Assembly: GCA_963765895.1 (NCBI GenBank)
Contig: CAVXZB010000075.1
Coordinates: 1 to 23,393, forward strand
Direction of reading: 5' to 3'
Source: an uncultured Nitrososphaeraceae archaeon
Lineage (GTDB): Archaea; Thermoproteota; Nitrososphaeria; Nitrososphaerales; Nitrososphaeraceae
DNA: 23,393 nucleotides
Shown here: positions 1,719 to 23,393 of the stretch, piece after piece
How positions within the stretch are numbered: the stretch's first letter is position 1
Layout: the number at the start of each line of letters is the position of its first letter
Notes under the pieces: model-generated
The model's input: the letters and a program-made list of their open reading frames with translations, nothing else
Databases searched by the model: none
Told to the model about the DNA's origin: nothing
Position numbers and translations under genes: made by a program

Positions 1719-4077
1719 ATGAATGATTCTGATAACTTAGTAGGTAAAAAGTCTGCAGTTACCAATACCGATTACCACGATAATCCCATATCTGGAGATG
1801 ACAAGGAATCACAGGAAGATCTAGGCACACAAAAAAATAATAGTTCAGCAAATGAGGGATCGCCTCAAGGGAAGAGCTCTGAACGTAATGAGAATAAGAA
1901 GTCGAAAAATAACAAGGGACCGGATGTCATAGCTATCTTAAAAACAAATATTGTAGAACTATTTGTAGATCAGTTAGGAGATCCTTACGCTGCAGTCAGA
2001 ATTAAAGATCATGTCAAAACCATTCCAATAAATTCAAGCAGATTTAGGGATTGGATTATCAAGACTTGTTATGATTACGGAAAGCAACTTCAAAGTGATG
2101 ACTTTGAAAATGAGCGCTCAATCCCAGTTTTAAGCAATGAGCAGGCGAGCAAAGTATCAAACGATTATTAAATTCGAAGCCGAAGAGCAGTGTAATGAGA
2201 GAAGACTCGAAATTCGCGTGGCTGGAAATGTAGATTTAAACGCGCCAGATGACAGTAACGAGATATATTATGATTTAAGTAACAAAGCTGGGGACATTGC
2301 TAAAGCAACTCGAAGTGGTTGGAAAATTATAAAACATGGATGCAAAGTAGGTGAAGAACAGTCCTCACGAATTATAGTATTCAAGCAATTTCGTAACCAG
2401 TTACCACAGGTATTGCCATCCAAGCAATATCCAGAAGATATTTCTGCGCAATTTTTAGATCTTATCAATATTCCTGCAGATGATATAGAGAACAGGATTC
2501 TTACTGAGGTATATTATATTAGCCTGTATTTTCCCTCCTGAATTCCAAAGCCTATCCTTGTTACTCATGGAGAGCAAGGCTCCGCGAAGTCTACCCTGCA
2601 TGAATTTATAAAAGAACTTGTTGATCCATGCGGCGCTCTTACCTTATCTTTTCCAAAAAGCGAGGAGACGTTACTGCAACAATTATCGCATAATTATGTA
2701 GCCTATTTTGATAATATTTCCAGTCTTGATTTATCAACATCCAACAATTTATGCAGAGCTGTCACTGGCAATGGGTTCTCAAAGAGGAGGCTCTACACAG
2801 ACGATGATGATTTCATTTATTCGTTTAGGAGGTGCGTAGGATTTAATGGCATAAATATAGCCGCTACAAGAGCAGATCTTTTGGAGAGGGTTTTTACTCT
2901 ACATCAAAAACGGATTTCAGAAGATAAGAGGCGGCCGATTGTAAGATTAAGAAAGCAGTATGAGACGATTAAACCGCAGCTTTTGGGCTTTATCTTTGAT
3001 GTTATAGTTAAGGTATTGAATAGAGTTGGCATTAAATTGACTAATTTACCACGAATGGCCGATTGGGCCCAGCTTGGCGAAATCATATCTAGATGTTTAG
3101 GATACCCAGATGGCGCATTTCTTAAAGCTTATCGTAACAACCTGGCAAAACAAAACGAGCACGCATTAGATACAAGTCAAGTTGCGCAAGCAATAATTAG
3201 ACTCATGCAAAAAAGAATGTCGGAAGGAGCTCATCTATCCGAGTGTTTAGGAGGTGTCTGTTACTTTAAAGGCTCTATGACCGGCCTACTAACGACATTA
3301 AAGGAAATTGCTGGCGGCGAGCTGGGATTAGATACCAAAGATAAAAGAAGATGGCCTCAGTCCCCACAAGCCTTAGGAAATAAACTTACTGAAGCTGCTA
3401 CTAACCTAAGAGAGATCGGGATAGTAATAGAGCGGCCTGAAAATAAGGCAAGTCATTCTAAGGATGTCCTGTTGATAAAGCAAAACGTCACTGACGGGGA
3501 ACCGGGGAACTTGCCATTGGAAAGTTTCCCGCATAGTTTCCCGTTGGAAAAGACGCAGATTCACGCTCAAACTGAGCATAAAACGGGAAACGGGAAACTC
3601 TGGGACTTTCCTTCATCTGCTGAAGAAAAAAATGATAATGAAGGATCATCTATTCCCCTAGAGGTACCAACAAGTTCCCCGACTTTCCCGAGTCCCCGTT
3701 CTGGTGAAAATCACGCTCAATTCGCTAGCGATACCAACGGGAAACCTGACGGGGAAGTCGAAGGGTACGCGAGTTCATGTTCCCCGTTACACAACGCTTC
3801 GTTATCAAATACAAACAGCGAGGCAACCAAAGTCATCTCTATAACCGACTTCTTTTATGATGATCCAACTATGCCTTACGTAGCGCTACCAGATCATAAA
3901 TTGGACCAGAGTCCATGCTGTCCTATTATAGCTATAAAGAATGGATACTATTACTGTAGGTTGCATCCTGAAATAAAGAATACACATCTGGAATCCATAG
4001 AGCATCATATCAAGTACAAAGATCCAGCGACGCATAAATCAGAGTTATTAAAATTGCCCAAACTTACTCATAACTAG
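1719..4077 (+). pseudogene. SF3-type replicative helicase/ATPase of a mobile element with a C-terminal Cys/His (putative Zn-binding) motif; disrupted
   Basis: Joins ORFs 1719..2171, 2137..2541 and 2881..4077 via a frameshift near 2157 and an in-frame TGA at 2539-2541. Read-through gives Walker A THGEQGSAKST, Walker B YFDN, GFNGIN and DLLER. C-terminus reads CCPII...YYCRLHP...IEHHIKY. Confidence 0.85.
3495..3786. repeat. Iteron-like array (CGGGRAA / TTYCCCG) with two TCACGCTCAA cores; candidate origin inside the helicase ORF
   Basis: Motif at 3495, 3503, 3525, 3537, 3584, 3591, 3675, 3684, 3692 (variant), 3738, 3750 and 3780 in both orientations. TCACGCTCAA at 3561 and 3711. Confidence 0.75.
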
Positions 4078-4662
4078 CTGATCCTATTGATAGGTAAAAC
4101 TATCAGGATTTGATGAACTTAGCAGAATTGCCTATTCTATAGACTTATATCTATAGATAGTAGCAATTAGTCGATGCGAATCAACATATTTAATCATGCA
4201 ATAAGTTTAACACATCGGACAGCATCAGATTTCTTAACACGTCCATCATAATATCCCGGAAATAACTTTATAATAAGATAGGAGTGATGCCAGGTATTAA
4301 ATATTATCAAAAATGCTACGATCTAGGTGTAAACCGACGTCCCAGGATGGTGATAAAATTTATGTATGCTGAATATCATGAGGCGCATTCTAATCAGATT
4401 GTAGGTATATAGCAGAGTATGTTATCCCTAATCTAAAACATATGCTGTATCGTAATTTCCATCAGATCCCGAAGAACTAAATTGGAATAAACGGCGTATA
4501 ATACAGATGTGCGTACGTCAGATAATAAGCATTCCCTAAAAGTGATATTTGATGTATAGGCCGACTTCCAACACGAAGCTGTGTATTTCTCATGAGGTGC
4601 GCGCAGCTGGCTAAATATGCCTATATGGTCTATAGAATCAATAGACAAGAACTGTTTAGCCT

Positions 4663-5325
4663 GACCTATGGTATCCATATCTTTGGATGCATGGTGGTGA
4701 AATACTGAACACGAAGTCTGGACATCAGACAAAATAGAGTTACTGGTTTCCTGCCTTTAATATTACAGAACGTGTAAGGGCTATGAATTTTATCAAACAG
4801 CAGATCCATGCGGTCATAAAACCACAGAAAAATCATTTTTGGGGCCAGGAATTTCTTGACAGGAAGTTTGTAGTCATGATTGAAGGATCATGGCTACCTG
4901 TAACACTTCTTCAAAGGCAGTTCGAGAAATCCTTTGAACATAGGATTGGTTTTATACCAATGCTATCGGTGCCATATAAAAATAATCAAACTTCATCGTT
5001 GATGTGAGGCTATGCATTAGGCATACCTAAGGCTTCCACACATAAGGATCTCGCATGGAAGCTGATTGAACTAAAACCTGAGATATTTGGCTCTTATCTT
5101 ACCCAAACAAAAGTATTGCCGACTCAAAATCCATGGGAACAAATGATTTATTAAATTTGACAGCTTCATCTTATCCATATTATAGATAACTAGTCTCTAT
5201 GATCCCGTTTGCAGGAACAAATGATTTATTAAATTTGACAGCTTCATCTTATCCATATTATAGATAACTAGTCTCTATGATCCCGTTTGCAGGAACACGA
5301 CCATCAATTCCTGATTATCCTCAAT
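4663..5325 (+). pseudogene. Sugar ABC transporter solute-binding protein relic (C-terminal half)
   Basis: DLWYPYLWMHGGEIL...*SYWFPAFN...HFWGQEFLDRKFVVMIEGSWLP...HKDLAWKLIEL...RPSIPDYPQ, with several stops and indels. Aligns with 15035..15580. Confidence 0.85.
5136..5297 (+). repeat. Perfect 78-bp tandem duplication bounded by GGAACA microhomology
   Basis: 5136-5213 is identical to 5214-5291. GGAACA occurs at 5136, 5214 and 5292. Confidence 0.95.
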
Positions 5326-7107: not shown

Positions 7108-9604
7108 TTGGCTGGAGAAGTTGGCGGCAGCCTGTATCAAGGGAAAAAGAGGGCACTTATAATTAGCATTAGCCAGTACGATAAGCTTGAGCCTTTAGAA
7201 TTCTGTGAAAAAGATGGGAATAGGATGTACGAAGTTTTAAAGCAACTTGATTACGATATTCCATTAAAGTACAGATTGATAGGAGGTAAGATAGAGTATA
7301 ATAGGATACGAGATTCGATATTAGATTTCTTTTCGGATCCTGTTATACATCCCAGAGATACGATACTCCTTTATTTCTCTGGGCATGGGGTATTAGGAGA
7401 TGATGGAGAACATTATCTCTCTACATCTGAGATAGATCCAGATAAGCCTCGTAAGCGAGGCTTTCCATTTGATGATCTGTCAAAGGCCAGAGAAGACTGC
7501 AATTCAAAAACAATATTTACAATTTTAGATTGTTGTTATGCTGGGGCAGGCAAGCCCAAGAGGGAAAGGTGAGGACGAGTCTGCCAATGAAGCAAAAAAC
7601 CTCATTGAAAATAAGTCAAAATTACTGGGTGAAGGAAACTGCATTTTAACTGCTTGTAAACCTATGCAAAAGGCATATGAATACAAAGAACATGGTCATA
7701 GTTTCTTTACTTTTTATTTAGCTGAGGCTTTAGATAAAGGAGAGTGTGTCGACAAAGACGGTGACATCACACCAGAATTAGTAAGTAGATATATCGATTA
7801 TAGAATTAGGACCTTGCCAGAAAAATTAAGACCAAAGCAAACGCCACTCCTAGATTGTCGAACTGCAGGTAAAATCATACTTGCACACTATTCAAAAGTT
7901 ACAGAGCCAGAATCAGTCAATGATGATCAAGAAGAAAAAGAATCAAAAAAGGACTTTCTGTTAAGGCTACTCTTAGACGGTAAAGTCGAGGAATTTAACA
8001 AAAAACGTAAGGAAGAAGATATGCCGCCTTATCTTCGTAAAATAAACCTTAGTGGAAAAAATCTAATAGGAGTAGATCTACATGAGGCAAACCTTACTGA
8101 AGCCAAATTAAATAATGCAAAACTCATCGGAGCAAATCTAACTGCAGCTAACCTTAAGAATTCGGATCTCAGCGGAGCTAACCTTAAAAGTGCAGATCTT
8201 TACGGAGCTAACCTTTCCGGAGCTAACCTTTCCGGAGCAGATCTGAGAAGCGCGGATTTAAAGGGAATGATAGACTTTTCCGGAGCAAACCTTACTAGGG
8301 CAGACGTTAGAGGAGTAGACCTTAATGGTATGGTAAATTTCGCAGGTGCAACACTTTATGACGTAGACTTCTCTGGATCTGTTACTGATAATGTGTTGAT
8401 AAATCTAGCAGGTGCAGATGTTCATAATGTGAGAGGTTTGCGTGTTTTGCGGGAACATAATCAATATCTAGAAGCTCTAAAGTCTTTTTCTGAAGATGTT
8501 AATCAGCAATCTAAAGCTTACAATACACCGACAGAACAAGTAAAATCAATAGAAGAGAGCGTGAAAGGACTTGTAACAGAGGTTGAAGGTATAGGGGACA
8601 AAGAAGATCTTAGTTTTATAGAGAAACAGAGCCTTCAAACGAAATTGGCCTTGGCGATAGAGAAAATTTTAAGAGTTCTTCCAAAGACGTCCCAAAGTGA
8701 AGAAGTATTCACTTCCTTAACACCCTTTAGCAAATTAATTGGGAAAAGTATCGACGAATTAGTATCAAATACACTAAAGACACAGAAAGAACAAGATAGT
8801 TTAGCTACCAATTTTGATCAACACATAACATCACCGAAGGAGGAAGTTCCCTTCACTTACAACCCATCGACCAAAATGATGACAGTAACGATGGATACAA
8901 CAGACATAAACGTAAATGAAGCTCGAGAATGGGTTGATGAACTTCAAATGGTATGCGCCGATCTGGAGATTAAAGATGTGAATATATCCGGGAATAAAAT
9001 TTCGTTTAAAGCAGGATTTTCAGGAATGGAGGATACCGAGCCTGTCGACATATCTACCAGGATTAACGAGTATCTAACTACAAATGAAGCATTTCAAGTT
9101 ACAAACATATCTATAAACGATGGTGTTGAACAGTACAATTTTCATCAAGATAGTAAGGGTAGCTATAAGACAAACGATGCTGTAGAATGGAATAATAAAG
9201 GTCGTGCCCTAGATGAGTCAGGAAAGTATAAAGAAGCTATTAAATGCTATGACAAAGCTCTAGAAATAGATCCGAATTATAAGTATGCGCTGAATAATAA
9301 AGGTCGTGCCCTCGATAAGTTAGGGAGGTATAAAGAAGCTATTAAATGCTATGACAAAGCTCTAGAAATAGATCCGAATTATATTCGTGTGTGGAATAGC
9401 AAAGGTCGTGCTTTCTATATACTAGAGAAATATAAAGAAGCTATTAAATGCTATGACAAAGCTCTAGAAATAGATCCGAATTATATTGATGCGTTGAATG
9501 ATAAAGATTTAGCTGTTGATAAGTTAGAAAAATGGAAGAATGTAAAAAAATATTACGGCAAAGCAAAACAACGACTTGGCTTTGATCCTAGTGAGACCAG
9601 ATAA
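7108..9604 (+). CDS. Caspase-like protease (peptidase C14) fused to pentapeptide repeats, a helical domain, an acidic alpha/beta domain and TPRs; one frameshift near 7545-7570
   Basis: KKRALII, catalytic YFSGHG and LDCCYAG in 7108..7572. The small-subunit half (ILTACKPMQKAYE...SFFTFYLAEAL...PKQTP), A(N/D)LxG repeats and three TPRs (WNNKGRAL...YKEAIKCYDKALEIDPNY) are in 7538..9604. Confidence 0.9.
9227..9485 (+). repeat. 102-bp TPR units with a 55-bp identical block
   Basis: TATAAAGAAG...GAATTATA is identical at 9227-9281, 9329-9383 and 9431-9485. Confidence 0.95.
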
Positions 9605-10254: not shown

Positions 10255-10439
10255 GATAGATAGATAATATTGAACATTCTGACTAAGAGATATAGAAGAA
10301 GATTCTATCTAACCACAAAGTGCAACAGTATCACACATTATCGAATGCTGTTCCACATTCCAGTTACACATGTTAAGATTGGCAATTGGATTTTGGTCTT
10401 TTCGGCAGGACAGAAAAATGTGGTATATAACTTTTCAGA

Positions 10440-10464
10440 ATCTTCTTCTTAAAAGAATAAGTAT
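10440..10464 (+). promoter_or_regulatory. Shared upstream motif, copy 1
   Basis: ATCTTCTTCTTAAAAGAATAAGTAT, 24/25 identical to 11431-11455. Lies upstream of the TM-HNH gene. Confidence 0.6.
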
Positions 10465-10482: not shown

Positions 10483-11097
10483 TTGCTGGCAAAGACATTT
10501 TATTACTTGAATATTCTGGTAATATTAGCAGTAATTTTAACTCATCCTGGACAGTACGTATATGCAATTTCCGGATATGACTCTGGATATAATCATGGGT
10601 GTGATGATGCAAAGGTACCTGATCCATCAGAAAGGTACATTAACCAACCTGGGAAAGGTCCAAATTTTCACTCTAATGCTTTTATGTAAGGATATGAATC
10701 AGGCCTTAGCTCTTGCTTTGTTGACCAACCCCCTGTTTTGCCACCCTCAAAATCCCCAAACCAGGCACCTCCATCACCCACGATGACAAACCAGGGCGAT
10801 GAAACAAGTTTTGGAGTGGCGATAATAATTGCTATACTGGTCATTATATCATCTGTAGCAGTTGCAATCAAGAAATTCATGCGGAGGGGTAAACGTAGAG
10901 AGAGACAACACTTTTCGGATTCAGTAAAGGAGAGTGTATTAAGAACACAAAATCATAAGTGCGCACACTGTAAGCGAATTCTCAACGTTGTTGATTGGGA
11001 TCATAAGAATGGGGACAGATCAAATAGTAATGAATCAAATTGTCAGGCATTATGTCCTAACTGCCATGCAATAAAAACAAGGAGTCCAAGGAAGTAG
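10483..11097 (+). pseudogene. Signal peptide - GxxxG ectodomain - Pro linker - TM helix - HNH endonuclease; one in-frame TAA
   Basis: ORFs 10483..10689 and 10738..11097 are in the same frame, separated by TAA 10687-10689. CAHC...DWDHKNGDRSNSNESNCQALCPNCH is a Zn-binding HNH. TM GVAIIIAILVIISSVAVAI is followed by KKFMRRGKRR. Confidence 0.85.
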
Positions 11098-11430
11098 TAA
11101 CGGTCGACAAGACTTTCTGAATCAAACGTTGCTGAAGGGATCAACCATCACCAGATCAAATTAGTAATACCGAAGTCTATCCATAGTCATTTTATGGTGT
11201 TTTCCTAGCCAGACTGTACATTGATGATACCGTGTGTCTTAATCCAAATAAATTCGATAATATTGTTATGCAACCTTATAGTCCTCCTTCTACCAGCATA
11301 TTCTGACTCACTCTTAAATTATTGGTGCACCGTATTATGTGTATTATTCTGAAGATTATGATTTATTCAAGGCCATAATCATTTGATCAGCCAAATGTGT
11401 AAAAATTACTAATTAGAAAAATGTGTCAGT

Positions 11431-11455
11431 ATCTTCTTTTTAAAAGAATAAGTAT
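11431..11455 (+). promoter_or_regulatory. Shared upstream motif, copy 2
   Basis: ATCTTCTTTTTAAAAGAATAAGTAT contains the inverted repeat TTCTTTT-T-AAAAGAA. Confidence 0.6.
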
Positions 11456-11482
11456 ATTTCTACTGTAGAATTAACTGAAATA

Positions 11483-11762
11483 ATGTCCGACACAGGGAAA
11501 ATTAAATCGACAATTGTAATTGCAATTATAATTGCAACGATAATACCCGTAACGTTAGCACAAACAGCACAAGCAAGACCCCACAGATCAATTTTTTCAG
11601 ATATAGGAGATGCCAGAGATCGAGGCCAATCCGATGGAATAGCAGACGTTCCAGGCTGGTCAATCAGATAGTCCTAATTGTCAAGGTGGTGCTATATACT
11701 GTGCAATATATAATGACGCCTTTCATACAGGATGGAGTAAAGCGAGCGACGTAGCTCCATAA
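11483..11762 (+). pseudogene. Small secreted GxxxG-scaffold protein, frameshifted near 11648
   Basis: Signal peptide ending AQA, then ARDRGQSDGIAD / FQAGQSDSPNCQGGAIYCAIYNDAFHTGWSKASDVAP*. Confidence 0.75.
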
Positions 11763-12120
11763 TTTTTTACATTCCTATGTTAATTTATTTTTGTGAAAAA
11801 ATAAATTGTCCATGGATTGCCTTTAGCAATTTCATTCTACGTGACTCAGTGCTTACGGTTGTCCTTTGTTTACGAATATTTGGTTATTGATACTTCTCTT
11901 CTCAAACAACTCAATTTTCGGTCAAGTTAGAACGCCCATTGTGGGTATCAAATCGTCCCACACTATCAATACTGTTTCACATTATAGTTACAAGCCTCGA
12001 CAACGAAATGGCACTTCGTTTCTAATCAACTGCAATTAGAATCTTCTTCTATATGGAAGATGCAGTAAATTCAATTACTAGCGTCAACACTATGTTAGTA
12101 GGTGTGATCAACTGATTTGA

Positions 12121-12288
12121 CTATGTTTCAACGATAGTAACAAGGGATATAAAGACGGTCTGAACCATCCCTTTAGTCAGGACAGATTCGCGCAATACGG
12201 TGATGTTTGTGAACGCGGCTTTATGGCCGGGTGTCTGTCTGTGAAGGGTAATGACATGGACGCATGCAACTCGGCGGAGGATGCGTAG
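12121..12288 (+). pseudogene. 5'-truncated member of the secreted GxxxG family
   Basis: CFNDSNKGYKDGLNHPFSQDRFAQYGDVCERGFMAGCLSVKGNDMDACNSAEDA*, whose tail matches GCLDSGRTQDDCDNQADA of the next gene. Stop is 4 bp before ATG 12293. Confidence 0.7.
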
Positions 12289-12292
12289 GTAA

Positions 12293-12574
12293 ATGAAGGT
12301 AGTAATTAGCGCAGTTGTAATCGTGGTATTACTAATCGGCGTACAGTTGACCTTTGCAAAATCAGACTATCAAAAAGCATACAAAGTAGGATATCATGAT
12401 GGAGTGACAGAAGGAGTGTATCATCACTCAACGGCAGAGGACAACAGGAGCTCATTTTGGACTAATGCATATTACAATGGTTGGAATCAAGGTTGTTTGG
12501 ACTCTGGGAGAACCCAAGACGACTGTGATAACCAAGCTGATGCTGGTACATCCCTAACTAGTAGGTGGAGTAAT
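12293..12574 (+). CDS. Small secreted GxxxG-scaffold protein; no stop, so it reads through into the next gene
   Basis: Signal MKVVISAVVIVVLLIGVQLTFA, then DYQKAYKVGYHDG...WTNAYYNGWNQGC. An out-of-frame TAA follows GTS. Confidence 0.75.
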
Positions 12575-12871
12575 TTGAAAGTCTTGGTCAGTGCAGTTGC
12601 AGTCCTAGTCCTAATGATAGGCGCACAGGGTGCGTATGCGTTAACTGAATACCAGGCAGGGTTTAAAGAAGGACAAAGGTTCTCTAACGAGCCATTCAAT
12701 AGTAAAACACTAAAGAAAGAGTCTGATATAATCGATCAACATCCACATCAGTTTTACGAGGGATGGCTCGACGGCTTCTGTATCCTAAATCCGCACACGG
12801 GAAGTGATGCAGATGAATTTACATTCAGTTGCTCTGATTCAAGATATGGTGCACATATTGGTGATCCCTAG
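12575..12871 (+). CDS. Small secreted GxxxG-scaffold protein
   Basis: Own TTG start after AGGTGGAG and own signal peptide KVLVSAVAVLVLMIGAQGAYA, then EYQAGFKEG...FYEGWLDGFC. Confidence 0.8.
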   Translation: MKVLVSAVAVLVLMIGAQGAYALTEYQAGFKEGQRFSNEPFNSKTLKKESDIIDQHPHQFYEGWLDGFCILNPHTGSDADEFTFSCSDSRYGAHIGDP

Positions 12872-12907
12872 GCACGTTGAGCTTCAGGAAGAGAAGGATG
12901 AGTTGAA

Positions 12908-13082
12908 ATGAAAGTCTTGGTTAGTGCAGTTGTAGTTCTAGTCCTAATGATAGGCGCGCCCGCTGTCTATGCAGAAACGGCCTATCAATCAGGATTTAAA
13001 CACGGTGTGGCTGACGCGAATCATAAAGATCCCGAATGTGCGCCTCATCAATTCCCATGTCCTCGCCCTACCGATTATATAT
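12908..13082 (+). pseudogene. Secreted GxxxG-scaffold protein, 3'-truncated
   Basis: MKVLVSAVVVLVLMIGAPAVYA-ETAYQSGFKHGVADA...DYIL. The second glycine helix is missing where the GC-rich segment begins. Confidence 0.75.
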
Positions 13083-13587
13083 TACTGCTGGTTACATCCA
13101 GTCTGACATCTAATTTCTTTGAAGGTTTTTCCATTGTCTTCGCGCCCTCCACCTCCACCGCCACTTGACGTTGTATCATCTTTACCAGTTACTTTGTCAA
13201 CTAGTTGTTGGAAAGGATTCTTCTGTGTATTAGCATTTTCAGTAGAGTTGGTGTCGGCCACCTTCTTGACCTGGTCTTGGTGTAACTTGCCCGTTGAGGC
13301 TGGTTTGGGCGCCTTGGCTGTTACAACTGGTGATGGGTTTTTCTTTTGGAATAGAGTTGTGGGCGCGACCGTTACAGTTCTAAATCCTGCTGGACGTACT
13401 GGTGCCACTGGCTTGGCCGCTGCCGCCGTAGCTCGTGTTGCTTACAGCATGTAGCATATGTACCGGGGCTGCCTTTGAACGGAGTTCATGCAGCAGCACA
13501 GGTCATAACGGCACAAGCTCGCGCTGTCCTTTGGCTAACGATGTGATAAACTCCTGTACCTAAAACGAACGTGTCAGTACTTGTCAT
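13082..13587 (-). other. GC-rich low-complexity coding fragment of apparently foreign origin
   Basis: ORF 13082..13408 is Ala/Pro/Lys/Thr-rich with a Gly run. Lines 13261-13320 and 13381-13440 are 35/60 and 37/60 G+C. Possible disrupted start at ATG 13587. Confidence 0.45.
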
Positions 13588-13728
13588 ACGCTAAGAATCA
13601 GCTGAAATAGGAACAGTGATTAGTCAATCTCATACAGAGAATATAATTAAGGTTGCAAAAGAATTTGTTGAATTACTAATGATAGTATCACATCGTGGGA
13701 CATTGTTCAACTATGTTTTATAGTCCAG

Positions 13729-13992
13729 CTATAATTGTTGATCTAAATCATGAATGAATCGCATTTTGTTACAGCGGCTTGGTTTGATTGCACAGAAGCC
13801 ATCGAAATACCCGTTAACGAACTTCCCTGTTTGATTATTAAGACCTAGGGCATGACACCCGTTTGGATTACACCCAGCCGATGCATCATTCATGCCGCGC
13901 TCATATCCTGATTCGTAGTCAGACATTGCAAAGGCATTCTGCGCGCCTATCATTAGACATAATGCGATTGCAGTTAGGATTATTGTCTTCAT
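13729..13992 (-). CDS. Small secreted GxxxG-scaffold protein
   Basis: MKTIILTAIALCLMIGAQNAFA-MSDYESGYERGMNDA...CNPNGC...FVNGYFDGFC. Confidence 0.85.
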   Translation of the reverse strand: MKTIILTAIALCLMIGAQNAFAMSDYESGYERGMNDASAGCNPNGCHALGLNNQTGKFVNGYFDGFCAIKPSRCNKMRFIHDLDQQL

Positions 13993-14010
13993 TTCACTAC
14001 CACCGGAAAT

Positions 14011-14365
14011 TTAAGGAGAGGAAGCTTCCGGCGGAAGAAAACAAGCCTTTATGGCTCTTCCCGCGTCGCCACATCCTGAGCTCCAACCTACTGTGTATCC
14101 CCTAACCCAAGATTCAGTAGCATTTAAGTGATGATATGCTCGTCCTGTCCATCCGTCAGCATATCCTGCTTTAAACCCTGAAAGATGATCTATATTATTT
14201 GTGGTGCCAGGGATGCTTTCGAGGTATTCAATGAGACACTGATCATGATCAGGGCCGAAAATACACGGTCTACCCTGTGCTGTATCCTTTGAATGCCTGT
14301 ATAGTTGGCGCGCCTATCATTAGGACCGAGATTGCCACTACACCAATTACTATTTTCATTTTCAT
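14011..14365 (-). pseudogene. Secreted GxxxG-scaffold protein, frameshifted near 14272; absent from the ORF track
   Basis: MKMKIVIGVVAISVLMIGAPTIQAFKGYST / GRPCIFGPDHDQC...HLSGFKAGYADGWTGRAYHHLNATESWVRGYTVGWSSGCGDAGRAIKAC. Closest to the 12293 gene. Confidence 0.8.
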
Positions 14366-14417
14366 TTCTTCTCACAATCAAAGTCAGGATTATCTGCCTT
14401 CTAACTTATTCGTCTCT

Positions 14418-14603
14418 TTACTTTGGAACTATGATTATTGTAGGATTGTTATTGTTATTAATGACACTTGGATTGTTATTATTGGTACTGCGTTGGCTTT
14501 GACTCTGACTCTGACTCTCATCCTGACTTGGTGCTTGTGAAAACGGAGGTGGTGGGTTCATAGGTTGTTGTCCATTATTATTAGCATTCGAAGCATCCCA
14601 GTT
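14418..14603 (-). pseudogene. Q/S/N-rich C-terminal gene fragment
   Basis: NWDASNANNNGQQPMNPPPPFSQAPSQDESQSQSQSQRSTNNNNPSVINNNNNPTIIIVPK*. No matching 5' part found. Confidence 0.5.
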
Positions 14604-15034
14604 TCCAGTGATATTTCACTTTCCTTTATATGATGGCAGGCAAGCGGTTTGGACATAGACGAAATGGCATCAAACAACTTGACATGCATTATTTAAGGAA
14701 TGCGCATTTGGAGATGTAGTCTAAATAACTATTATCTATAGAATATCAGATTTGGCGCGCCTTTCGATAGGCATACATATTTTTATCTAGCCAGACGACA
14801 GTCTATACATTGATCTCTCGATCCAGAAAACCTTTTTAATACGATATTTTTCATAACGTACATCGAAGACATTGTTTCCGAGCTAATCAAATCAGACTTT
14901 TTCAAGATTCTAATGTTCTTTGCCATGATAAATATTATGGTGACTGTAGACATGCCCTGTATGGGTTACTTAGTTAGTAACTAGGAGATGAGTCTGCACG
15001 TGTGCATGACCTAAGTGCCACACATGATCAGCTA

Positions 15035-15580
15035 CTACCAACCTAACACCTTAGCAGACTTCGCAGCTGCCTCTTGCAATGCTTGATTAGGATCCTTATT
15101 TTCAAATTGAACGTCGTAGATCGCCTGTCGAATATTATTTGCAATTTGAGGATATTCTGGAATTGCTGGTCGTGCTAGTCCAGATGGAACCATAGAGACT
15201 AATTGTTTATAATATGGATAGGACGAGGCAGTTGAATTTAATAATTCACTTTCACCGATAGATATCTGAGTCGGAAGAAATCCATTTTGAAGAAGAAAAG
15301 AATGAAGTAACTTTGGCGTCAGCATTAATTCAATCAGCTTCCATGCAAGTTCCTTATGACTAGAAGTCTTAGGAATGCTTAATTCCCAACCTCCCATCAA
15401 CGTTGAAGTTCTATTATTTTTATATGGTACTGGCAGCGCTGGAATAAAACCAATCTTGCCTTCAAAGTCTCTAGCAGACTGTCTTTGAAAAAAGGATTGG
15501 GGTAGCCATGAGGGTAGCCATGAACCTTCGATCATCACTGCAAACTTTCTATCAAGAAATTCCCGCCCCCAGTAGTGATT
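15035..15580 (-). pseudogene. Sugar ABC transporter solute-binding protein, C-terminal portion only
   Basis: NHYWGREFLDRKFAVMIEGSWLP...LMGGWELSIP...LAWKLIE...ARPAIPEYPQIANNIRQAI...ALQEAAAKSAKVLGW. An in-frame stop lies directly upstream. 12-bp tandem duplication at 15500-15523. Confidence 0.85.
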
Positions 15581-15679
15581 TCAGGGTCCACCGATTAGTT
15601 AGTTATCTATGAATTTATTGTGTCATATTTTCAACTATCCAAACGAATCGTTATAAAGCCGGCAGCCACAAAACATCTG

Positions 15680-16700
15680 ATGACAACTCTGGAGAGACTC
15701 ATAGGTGTGAATTTTCACGGTTACGGATCAAGTGTTTATCAAAACAGAAATACTCCAAAGCCTCCCGAGAACTACGTTAACGATTCCTTTGCAATATTTT
15801 CTAGGTATGGTATGACCTGTGTCCGGGTTACATTGTCACTGGGAGTCTTGGGAGCTCAATAAGAATCAGTTCAAGGAAGACCTACTAGCAATTGGACAAG
15901 CAGCTGATAAATACGGAATAAAGTGTATTTATGATAATCATCAGTGGGAATGTTCGTCTTGGATCGGGTCTGGAATTGGGTTTCCTAATTCATTGATGTC
16001 AAACCATTTTGAGAAAACATCCAGTCCTGAAAGTATACCTAGTTACAAGGCAAAGAAGAATTTTTGGGATGGTTGGTGGAACAGAAACTTGCAAACGGTA
16101 GATGGGATCGATGGATGGGAAGCTCAGGCAACATTTCTCATGGATGTTGTCAAGCTCTTAAACGGCAGAAAATCAACTTTTGGCTTTGAACTATTAAATG
16201 AGCCTCCAGTGTTTTCAATTTCTCACTATTTTAAGATACGAATTTATTATGACTTTCTGATAAATACCTTACGTAAAGAAACAGACAAGCCTATTATTTT
16301 CTGTTGGGCTAATCCTCAGCGCTTATTGGACATTTTACCATTGCAGGTTAGGGCAAGTCCAACTAGTAAGCAAAACGTGATTTATGATTGCCACCCTTAT
16401 CCTCCTTCTCCTATACACCTTCTTTACTTTAAACTGACGTCTATGCTAATTGAAAAGAGTATGCCTTTGTTTATTGGGGAATTTAATTCTGGTCCAGAAT
16501 TCAATGCTTCTTTAAAGGAAAATCAAGCATCAAGATACGTAAAAAGACTTGGAATGATGGGGATTATTGGATGGGCAGTATGGCGCTGGTCATACGTAAA
16601 GGATGATAATATACCTGCCTTTAATTTGGCTGCAGTTTCTGATGGTAGAATTGTTCCAGCCCCCATCTTCGAAACATTCTGGGACAGATTCAGAGATTAA
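15680..16700 (+). pseudogene. Glycoside hydrolase family 5 (clan GH-A, cellulase-like); frameshift near 15835
   Basis: IGVNFHG, CVRVTL/HWESWE, YDNHQW, acid/base ELLNEP, DCHPY, nucleophile FIGEF and GWAVW. TTATAAAG at 15651 precedes ATG 15680. Confidence 0.85.
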
Positions 16701-18963: not shown

Positions 18964-19783
18964 CCCGGGGGCTTTCCAAGGCAAACATGAAGGAACTGTA
19001 ATCTGGGAAAAATAACAGAAGTATTGTTGAAAGTAACTAAATATAGATTACATTTTAGATGGTAGGCATCAGTTGTTGCATCGTTATGAGTATTGGCATT
19101 ATCAATAATACTGACATCATCCCACTGTAACCATCGAATTCCTAAACAAAGGCGCATTTTATAAGAAAGTCTAGGTAGAAGGCAATGTTAGTCTTTAAGG
19201 AAGGTAATTCTGAAAACACATCTATCAGATTCTTTACTTTGGTTTAAACATTAATAACATTATTTACAGCGGTGGTTGGAATACAATATGAGATAGAATT
19301 CTGTTGGGTAACAGATTGATTGATATTCTACTACATAAGGAGAGAACCAATCGATTAAAAATATTTAATAATAGCAATTGAATTGTGCTGCAATGTTCCA
19401 CTTTAGTTACAAGCTTTAACAACTATCCCGTCGCTGATAATTTGCCTTTAGATTGCTTCAACCTTTTAGCGATGAATTGAAGAGATTTTCCTTGCTGTTC
19501 AAGAAGTTATCGCATGGAGTTGTTTTCCACTGTATTCTGAATCTTCTTCTAGAAAGGATAAATATATTGTTATTATAAAATGCTGTATCATGTAATGGCT
19601 CGGAAAAATCACAGTATGCAACGTTATTAACGAATTGAAGAGACGATTACGAATTAAGAAAATTAATCGGTCCTATAATTAACCGTGTATTCAAAAGTAC
19701 GATACTAGTTCATGATATTACTTCTCATTCTAGGTTTGCTTATATGAAAGTTTATGCGTGAATGAGAAGTAATTTTTTCTATG

Positions 19784-22371: not shown

Positions 22372-23393
22372 CTAGATGGTAGTAGACGTAGGGATCAACG
22401 TCTCATTTTCACCTCTTAATGCCTGCTTGGTTGTAATCCCCAAATAGTAATATTCCCGTTTCTTGTTCTTCATCACACGATCCTTTAGTATGCCTAGTTG
22501 TGCCAACTCTTTTCCTAAAATATTTTCTTCTAACACTTTAGTATGCCTTGTCCGACAAAATTCTTGAAACGAATCCCGCAACGTGGTTGCCATAATGCAG
22601 ATGTCCGGTTTATTTAGATCAATAACGCATTGCTCCTCAATAAACTGCTCTACTATACTGGCATTACGCTCATACTGCTGCTTTATTTTTTCCACGGGTG
22701 TATCTTTGAAACCACCTTCCTTAATGAGTTTAGTCAAGCCCTTCTGTGCCAGGTTCAGAAGACCTGACAATTCTTCTTCGGTGATTAGTTTACTTATCAA
22801 ATCCGCATCTTCTTCTTCACCTTCAAAAATTCTGTCGAAAGGCAATATCACCCATCTACGATAATAGGCATAACTGTTATCCATAGATTCAGGTATCTTA
22901 TTCGTGCTGAAAATCAGTTTGGCGTAGTTTCTAAAACTAAAGGCTTGCTGGTGTTTCCGTTGTGCCCGGATACTATCACCAGAAACAAGGGCTTTGAACC
23001 TACCAGTGTTTACTAGTTTATCCGCTTCAAGGTCAGCGAAGACGTTGACAAGTTTACAATTGAGATCTGCACTTGCGAACCTATCTCCTAACAATTCCTG
23101 TAAGCTTGCATGACTTACATTCTGCTTTCCTACTAAAGCTTCAATTAGTTTGATGAGGACGCTTTTGCCGTTTCTGCCGGGACCAACTAACATAATTGCT
23201 TTCTCGTAACGCGGGCTCCTGTATAGACAATACCCAAATAATCTTACAAGAGTTGAAATCCCATCTCTTGTTTGTACTTCCAGTTAGGAACTTGATTACT
23301 CGGGGACAGGTAGCGCGAGGATCGTACGTTACTGGCGACTGGATAATCGACAAATAATCATGCTTGTGTGGCCTAATTTCTCCAGTCGTTATA
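22372..23393 (-). CDS. P4-family/D5-like primase-helicase, C-terminal part (runs off the window; frameshift near 23280)
   Basis: D5_N-like HDYLSIIQSPVTYDPRATCPRVIKFL / LFGYCL, Walker A GPGRNGKS, Walker B VNVFAD, motif C LIFSTN, YYRRW and a winged-helix-like tail. Confidence 0.9.

Follow-up and report, generated by a model that had tools for sequence, protein, structure and literature searches.

The locus examined here raises the question of what a crowded array of small genes contributes to an archaeon of the family Nitrososphaeraceae, and whether these genes belong together at all. In soils, archaeal ammonia oxidation is mainly the work of this family, and to our knowledge almost nothing is known about their interactions with surfaces, neighbours and viruses. 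The window is the entire 23.4-kb contig C75 of a 4.9-Mb genome assembly in 88 contigs (completeness 88 %, contamination 2.4 %), and the array lies between 10.4 and 14.6 kb. A sequence-only reading had listed seven genes or fragments there (11483, 12121, 12293, 12575 and 12908 on the plus strand, 13992 and 14365 on the minus strand) together with a Q/N-rich tail at 14418, and had taken them for a diversified repertoire of secreted proteins on one glycine-zipper scaffold, carried by mobile elements. We found open reading frames (ORFs) or fragments at all of these coordinates, arranged by six-frame reading in two convergent blocks (plus strand 10483–13168, minus strand 14608–13729), but one of the seven, 11483, shows no profile link to the others. 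With moderate confidence, we interpret the family as an uncatalogued Nitrososphaeraceae domain, present in about 25 clusters, that would act as an extracellular binding or docking module.

Family membership of the genes in the window

Relatedness was assessed with profile hidden Markov models (HMMs) and hhalign. The full-length alignment comprised 20 paralogues and the canonical domain profile 24 mature domains, and all HMM scoring was against the 23,170 ORFs of the genome. The canonical profile matched 12575 (E 1e-25) and 13992 (E 4e-16), both of which are in its seed, as well as 10483 (E 7e-9) and 12908 (E 6e-5). Subtype C, represented by 12293 and the downstream part of 14365, aligned to the canonical subtype A with an hhalign probability of 94.7 % (E 6e-8 over 59 columns, signal peptides removed), and the C profile also cross-matched 13992 (E 1.6e-4); on this comparison 12293 and 14365 convincingly appear to belong to the superfamily. 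The 12121 piece matched the subtype-B HMM, in whose training set it is included, with E 1e-31, and probably belongs to the superfamily through C (B–C hhalign 65.6 %). Subtype D aligned to A with a probability of 75.6 %, and the window carries a D tail alone: as judged by its 87.5 % DNA identity to intact D-gene tails on C12 and C19, with 14522–14600 being 83–89 % identical to those on C12, C19 and C27, the Q/N-rich tail at 14418 is the remnant of a subtype-D gene. Altogether, 10483 and the six listed pieces other than 11483 (12121, 12293, 12575, 12908, 13992 and 14365) appear to form one superfamily.

The proposal of one family of small proteins exported by the Sec route is thus supported by profile HMMs and hhalign, and the similar leaders are seen as the consensus MK..I......LMIGA.SA of the 20-paralogue alignment. 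That the mature loops are unrelated is true between subtypes, but inside each subtype the loops are conserved. For the ORF at 11483, family membership is not supported, its best E value with the HMMs being 0.46 and its probability in hhalign 0.65 %; as read from its corrected frame, it is a separate 92-aa secreted protein under the same promoter-like element as the arrays. The features of the region are as follows.

10437–10458, plus strand: promoter-like 22-nt element lying 25 nt ahead of the 10483 start codon and differing from the consensus at 2 positions
10483–11097, plus strand: signal or anchor segment, family domain ('NHGC' staple type), Pro-rich linker, predicted transmembrane (TM) helix and HNH-like motif
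11428–11449, plus strand: promoter-like 22-nt element upstream of 11483
11483–11759, plus strand: small signal-peptide protein, non-member, with a frame break at 11646 in the assembly
12038–12059, plus strand: promoter-like 22-nt element heading the gene block 12121–13168
12130–12288, plus strand: subtype-B domain without signal peptide, promoter and leader joined straight to the mature part
12293–12556, plus strand: subtype-C member, 87 aa after removal of the extra base 12550
12575–12871, plus strand: canonical member, 98 aa, TTG start, intact (HMM E 1e-25)
12908–13081, plus strand: canonical member cut short by a deletion that leaves the 5' part with signal peptide, helix 1 and loop
13082–13408, minus strand: N-terminal first third of a 301-aa Gly-rich non-family protein, cut by the 13081 deletion
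13729–13992, minus strand: canonical member, 87 aa, both helices kept (HMM E 4e-16)
14013–14365, minus strand: subtype-C member, signal peptide (14270–14365) and domain (14014–14199) in different frames
14418–14608, minus strand: Q/N/P-rich C-terminal tail of a subtype-D member, domain missing

Several of these genes can be read against copies elsewhere, contig C75 being a patchwork whose sequence recurs in the same genome. The array is most closely matched by a paralogous locus on C25 (55.4–58.2 kb, 81–83 % identity). The arrangement of 12121 recurs at the paralogous loci on C25 and C76 (82–83 % DNA identity). Gene 12908 is colinear with C25 up to 13081, after which its ORF continues to 13168 through unrelated sequence; the C25 paralogue is intact and encodes 126 aa. 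In 13992, foreign sequence from 13772 replaces the C-terminal hairpin and the fourth Cys; its orthologues P0034, P0040 and P0042 continue differently past this junction, and 13614–13772 is common to C25 and C76. In 14365, about 200 bp are missing between signal peptide and domain, and a paralogue on C27 has the middle part.

The full 301-aa Gly-rich, Cys-containing protein lies next to the C25 paralogous array (L004 6912–7817, minus strand) and has no family match. A secreted family of about 170 aa without Pfam match is fused behind a 13992-type hairpin domain in some relatives (P0034, P0042); in this genome it is an unfused protein preceded by a signal peptide (L005 5061–5576, the same as C76 12060–12578).

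Predicted fold and cysteine layouts

AlphaFold modelling of the 24-sequence domain alignment (pLDDT 93.2, pTM 0.84) predicted for the canonical domain a helix at positions 3–17, a loop, a second helix at 41–54 and two strands (59–62 and 65–68) forming a beta-hairpin. For 13992 the overall pLDDT was 81.6, with both helices at about 90 (blocks 94, 88, 71, 92 and 91) and the foreign C-terminal tail at 65 and 51. The two-helix hairpin that was expected as the common fold is therefore predicted in the canonical domain, and both of its helices in 13992.

Column statistics were taken over 274 domains from 259 proteins. On helix 1 the most conserved positions were G7 (89 %), G11 (96 %) and D14 (95 %), and on helix 2 F43 (95 %), Y47 (90 %) and G50 (97 %); Y28, I29, G35 and H39 are well-conserved columns ahead of helix 2, and the loop between the helices varies from 12 to 31 residues. 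The scaffold pattern of Gly, Asp and aromatic residues described from the window is accordingly a real property of the family, and 'GxxxG helical hairpin' is a fair description of it since the conserved columns sit on the predicted helices. These helices are polar (Y, Q, S, N, H, D), and the pair is predicted to be a soluble hairpin and not a membrane helix.

The cysteines fall into two nearly exclusive layouts. Cys 52 and 69 occur together in 91 of the 274 domains, in 38 of the 274 accompanied by Cys 19 and 25, and Cys 12 and 54 occur together in 88; mixed layouts were seen in 5 domains. Because the cysteines co-occur as pairs, this suggests alternative disulfide staples on one scaffold, as deduced from co-occurrence and not from geometry. 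The staple would be 52–69, with or without 19–25, in the canonical type and 12–54 in the 'NHGC' type.

Comparison with solved structures gave no counterpart. No sequence in the Protein Data Bank (PDB) matched at E ≤ 10, the best Foldseek hit had E 4.4, and among 48,161 PDB chains compared by VIA-align the best Z was 4.2, none reaching Z ≥ 5; for so small a domain, the absence of a look-alike is weak evidence of a new fold. The ESM Atlas contained no usable match for the canonical protein (best 0.83) or for relative P0045, and the homodimer prediction for the canonical domain scored 0.00, below the mark.

Copy number and taxonomic range

Iterative HMM searching gave 59 family ORFs across 19 contigs of the genome, of which at least one (on C11) looks doubtful, and a six-frame search gave 51 family matches. 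The 59 ORFs form 25 clusters, several with 3–8 genes. Outside this genome, a word-indexed search returned 127 relatives, nearly all unnamed or labelled 'hypothetical', and an exhaustive profile search of 1.84 billion proteins returned 559 cluster representatives at E ≤ 1e-3, 129 at 1e-10 and 3 at 1e-30.

Matches were found in 62 of 201 Nitrososphaeraceae genomes. Their distribution was uneven: every one of the other 6 genomes in the genus had a match, as did 29 of 34 in a second genus, compared with 0/37, 1/38 and 1/25 genomes in three further genera of the family. No match was found in 261 genomes sampled from 14 other families of the class. Relatives of proteins of this assembly (P0033, P0266 and L015, the last from a metagenome-assembled genome) are labelled Nitrososphaeraceae. 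Among the genomes searched, the domain is thus found only in Nitrososphaeraceae, with a striking expansion of the family in one genus, to about 50 copies in the present genome.

A promoter-like element shared by the arrays

Many arrays have, 8–234 nt upstream of their first gene, a 22-nt element with the core TTCTAGAA. Allowing up to 4 mismatches, it occurs at 21 sites in the genome versus 3 in a shuffled genome. Ten of the 21 sites directly precede family ORFs, and most others precede different small ORFs with signal peptides. The window holds four copies, namely the three listed above that precede genes 10483 and 11483 and the 12121–13168 block, and one at 19538–19559. All 7 genomes examined in the genus carry the element (26 sites versus 0 for the reversed pattern), and in the other species a superfamily gene lies within 1.5 kb downstream at 9 of 14 sites. 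The element is thus conserved across the genus and marks a candidate regulon. The array genes overlap or are closely packed, so that the arrays fit operons.

Export and larger architectures

An N-terminal hydrophobic segment is present in 42 of the 59 family ORFs. In other genera the domain is embedded in proteins of about 370–555 aa, where it follows Cys-rich segments or PKD domains and precedes a beta-rich C-terminal part, and relatives P0001–P0005 carry two domains in tandem.

A further architecture, in which the domain is followed by a Pro-rich linker, a TM helix and an HNH-like motif, is conserved in the genus. Its copy in the window, 10483–11097, had been absent from the earlier list; it reads in a single frame with one in-frame TAA at 10687–10689, and its HNH match is weak (E 0.033). 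Intact orthologues of this TM-HNH protein are P0088, P0091 and a 209-aa ORF in genus genome G002; the codon corresponding to the TAA encodes Gln in the G002 orthologue and Gln or His in the relatives. A single strain contig, 97.5 % identical, covers the position and reads CAA (C at 10687). The leaders, together with the large-protein and TM-HNH architectures in which the domain is housed, place the domain outside the cell; it is thus predicted to be extracellular, with the HNH-like motif in the cytoplasm.

Selection and turnover

The five least saturated paralogue pairs had dN/dS values of 0.19–0.27, so that recent copies seem to be maintained by selection. Gene 12575 and its paralogue C25_56203, whose proteins are 81 % identical, gave dN 0.106, dS 0.451 and dN/dS 0.23. 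By region, dN in this pair was 0.29 for the loop and 0.06–0.08 for the helices, with 15–19 codons each; regional dN/dS is noisy at 13–23 codons per region and supports overall purifying selection alone, with a looser loop in one pair. Ongoing hypervariation, as had been proposed, is not supported by the dN/dS of the closest pairs; the large loop differences are old and lie between subtypes.

The content of the arrays nevertheless does turn over between species, as was anticipated. The 4.3-kb array of the window is colinear in no genome of the same genus, the best matches being no longer than 700 bp (longest 698 bp).

Proposed function

According to the explanation favoured here, the domain comprises 60–80 residues, is made with a Sec-type signal peptide and exported, and would fold into two antiparallel helices packed by GxxxGxxD on helix 1 and GYxxG on helix 2. 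A variable loop would link the helices, a short beta-hairpin would usually follow helix 2, and the whole would be locked by one of the two alternative disulfide layouts. In this genus the domain has been multiplied as single-domain proteins in tight arrays headed by the 22-nt element; it is also reused as a module of large extracellular proteins beside PKD and Cys-rich modules, and as the outer part of a membrane protein with a cytoplasmic HNH-like motif. Outside the cell it may act as a small, stable binding or docking unit whose specificity is set by the loop. Binding or docking is favoured on three grounds: the residues shared by all subtypes have structural roles, the loop is variable, and surface proteins use the domain as a module; the assignment as an extracellular binding/docking module of the envelope or matrix, deduced from these sequence features, is in itself tentative.

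Several points weigh against this interpretation. The conserved positions are structural (Gly, Asp, aromatic) and hence point to no ligand, and the fold is a prediction. The profiles for subtypes B, C and D were built from 6–9 sequences each, from this genome alone, and B is tied weakly to the rest (A–B hhalign 6.7 %). Relative P0045 bears the precomputed label PF28394, which is outside the library searched, so a recent Pfam entry may cover the domain. Finally, the array in the window may be partly non-functional, since several copies are truncated.

The family defines an exported domain that is absent from the libraries searched, with a confidently predicted fold, two cysteine layouts and a candidate regulon. 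Its structure, its disulfides, its presence in the secretome and the factor that binds the 22-nt element are directly testable predictions.

Alternative explanations

The single-domain proteins could instead be secreted antimicrobial or competition peptides of the archaeocin type, diversified by duplication. They are small, exported, disulfide-containing, multi-copy and lineage-specific, as such peptides would be, and 3 of 123 members gave sub-threshold matches to Lactocin 705, a GxxxG-rich family of class II bacteriocins (best E 0.008). However, no immunity, processing or dedicated transporter gene was recognised by Pfam, PHROGs or NCBIfam among the scanned ORFs of at least 90 aa in the window, a scan that left out several of the 25 ORFs of this size and in which small ORFs may have gone unrecognised. 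The domain is moreover built into surface proteins of 370–555 aa, which is unusual for bacteriocins, and the recent copies are under purifying and not diversifying selection. We therefore consider an antimicrobial role unlikely.

As originally put forward, the repertoire would be polymorphic, carried from place to place by mobile elements of archaea and subject to rapid birth and death of its genes. The contig does carry two primase/helicase fragments. One, at 22372–23193 on the minus strand, matches phrog_864 (E 7e-63; D5-like, DUF5906) and has a 95 % identical copy at C24:214965–216197; the other, the ORF at 2881–4077 on the plus strand, looks like the tail of another primase/helicase gene by reading, without a family match, and its 3' part and downstream region are repeated on many contigs. 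A dispersed non-coding repeat (about 4070–4385 in the window) of some 250–320 nt has 77 copies in the genome at 70–90 % identity; its right end is sharp, each of the six frames contains stops, and it matches nothing in Rfam. Eleven of the 25 family clusters lie within 3 kb of a copy versus a random mean of 2.3 (maximum 7 in 1000 trials), so that the arrays appear to sit in repeat-rich, rearranging regions. The variable array content between species of the genus and the real truncations at 13081, 13772 and about 14280 also speak for this reading. Against it, only 1 of the 25 clusters has a primase-like gene within 10 kb (random mean 0.4), two pattern-limited scans revealed no relative on viral contigs, and no integrase, att site or tRNA gene was seen in the window (0 tRNA genes and 0 Rfam families). 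The dN/dS values of 0.19–0.27 and the finding, described below, that two 'dead' genes are intact in other contigs are also at odds with rapid birth and death. Carriage on mobile elements is thus unsupported within these limited scans, and spread of the family in this manner seems rather unlikely.

It is improbable, in our judgement, that the domain binds a metal such as copper, on which these ammonia oxidisers depend, in the space beneath the S-layer. Speaking for such a role, His is frequent (85 % of the domains at column 39, 68 % at column 10), Asp14 is conserved and Cys residues are present. Yet no His or Cys is invariant, entire subtypes replace them, the Cys co-vary as pairs in a disulfide-like manner, and no Pfam metal-binding family was matched.

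Whatever the family does elsewhere, the array in the window could be mostly decaying duplicate DNA without present function. Gene 12908 lacks its 3' part, 13992 has a replaced C-terminus, 14365 has an internal deletion, 12121 has no signal peptide, 14418 is a tail alone and 10483 is interrupted by the stop codon at 10687. To separate decay from assembly errors, contigs from four soil-metagenome runs (two studies) were aligned to the region. Base 11646 is absent in contigs of X3 and X5 (2 runs, 2 studies), and its removal gives the 92-aa ORF at 11483, whose homologues P0266 and P0268 are intact with the same 92 aa. The 3 runs that cover base 12550 all lack it; as assembled, 12293 reads through into the 12575 gene to give a 192-aa ORF, and without this base it stops after 87 aa, like its homologue on C18, leaving 12575 as a separate gene. 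The assembly also splits an aminoacyl-tRNA synthetase gene (C84:96617–98411) and a thermosome gene (C88:123252–124726) into two frames each, and for this reason indel errors are the likeliest cause of such breaks; four indel differences from the metagenome contigs were seen within the 4.3 kb. The breaks at 11646 and 12550 are therefore probably assembly errors.

Independent contigs, in contrast, back three breaks as real: a truncation at 13081, another at 13772 and the deletion near 14280. At the 13081 junction, where 12908 and the 301-aa gene converging on it are both cut, an X1 contig with 100 % identity spans 12875–13144, and the 13772 junction is bridged by an X2 contig, X1 also having an alternative join. 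The runs hold both the deleted form of 14365 and forms with the middle part, and 1-nt variants at 13559 and 14284 in metagenome contigs restore no frame. The joins near 12100 and at 14608 were bridged by no contig of the runs compared, in which 12128–12415 is uncovered. The claim of gene death is thus weakened by the loss of two of the breaks, and caution is warranted because assembly indels produced some of the 'gene death' that such arrays seem to show. Since 11483, 12293 and 12575 are intact after correction, 12575 has a dN/dS of 0.23 versus its paralogue and the promoter elements are intact, we also regard an array that is mostly decaying as improbable.

Least probable, and held here as a very remote reading, the domain could serve for recognition in a sensing system at the cell surface, peculiar to soil ammonia-oxidising archaea, in which about 50 co-regulated secreted binders under one promoter/operator element would work alongside receptor-like versions that wire the outer domain, by way of one TM helix, to an HNH nuclease in the cytoplasm; if true, recognition of a virus, neighbour or kin at the cell surface would be coupled to DNA cleavage inside the cell.

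Other features of the window

Outside the array, an exact 84-nt direct repeat occupies 5136–5297, its copies (5136–5219 and 5214–5297) being offset by 78 nt. A caspase-domain ORF (7108–7572) overlaps a 688-aa ORF with pentapeptide and TPR repeats (7538–9604), and a frame error may have divided a single gene into these two. From 14608 onward the window matches C49 at 98 % identity; the stretch 14608–15581, corresponding to C49:10964–11938, contains the C-terminal fragment of a solute-binding protein and is followed by a GH5 cellulase-like ORF (15819–16700, Pfam E 1.4e-8), an unexpected enzyme in an ammonia oxidiser.

Comparison with known families

Returning to the interpretation as an extracellular binding or docking domain, we compared the family with known ones. 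Pfam, NCBIfam and PHROGs gave no name for any of the small proteins, and a full-text literature search, with supplementary files outside its scope, found no paper on the family, on DUF2799 or on PF28394.

DUF2799 (PF10973), to which a loose kinship had been suggested, comprises bacterial lipoproteins of unknown function. It resembles the present family in being made up of short exported proteins with repeated aromatic-xx-G-xx-DG-type motifs, and P0045 aligns over profile positions 4–84 of 86. The host domain of life differs, however, and the scores fall below the cut-off: none of 9 window ORFs matched at E ≤ 1, and 3 of 123 relatives matched at E ≤ 0.1, all sub-threshold, with a best score of 16.9 bits (E 0.0089) versus a gathering cut-off of 25. 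The suggested kinship is thus not upheld.

Yae1_N (PF09811) and Lactocin 705 (PF08109) share with the family the GxxxG spacing on helices and the close packing, each with 3 weak matches among 123 members. Proteins of these families act in the cytosol or on membranes and have neither the beta-hairpin nor Cys that co-vary in pairs, and the sub-threshold matches probably reflect the GxxxG motif alone. The same spacing, as GxxxGxxxG, recalls the glycine-zipper families Gly-zipper_Omp, Gly-zipper_YMGG and Rick_17kDa_Anti, but the helices of the present family are polar and predicted to form a soluble hairpin; these membrane families were absent among the 25 Pfam families listed, of 26 matched by the 123 members at E ≤ 0.1.

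In their overall organisation, the proteins are similar to other lineage-specific sets of small exported proteins with disulfides, such as the small secreted cysteine-rich proteins of fungi, which also combine a signal peptide, small size, a Cys framework and variable loops with tandem arrays and lineage restriction. The two groups differ in fold and in domain of life, and the archaeal domain is also reused in large surface proteins and in TM-HNH proteins, and its arrays share a promoter-like element.

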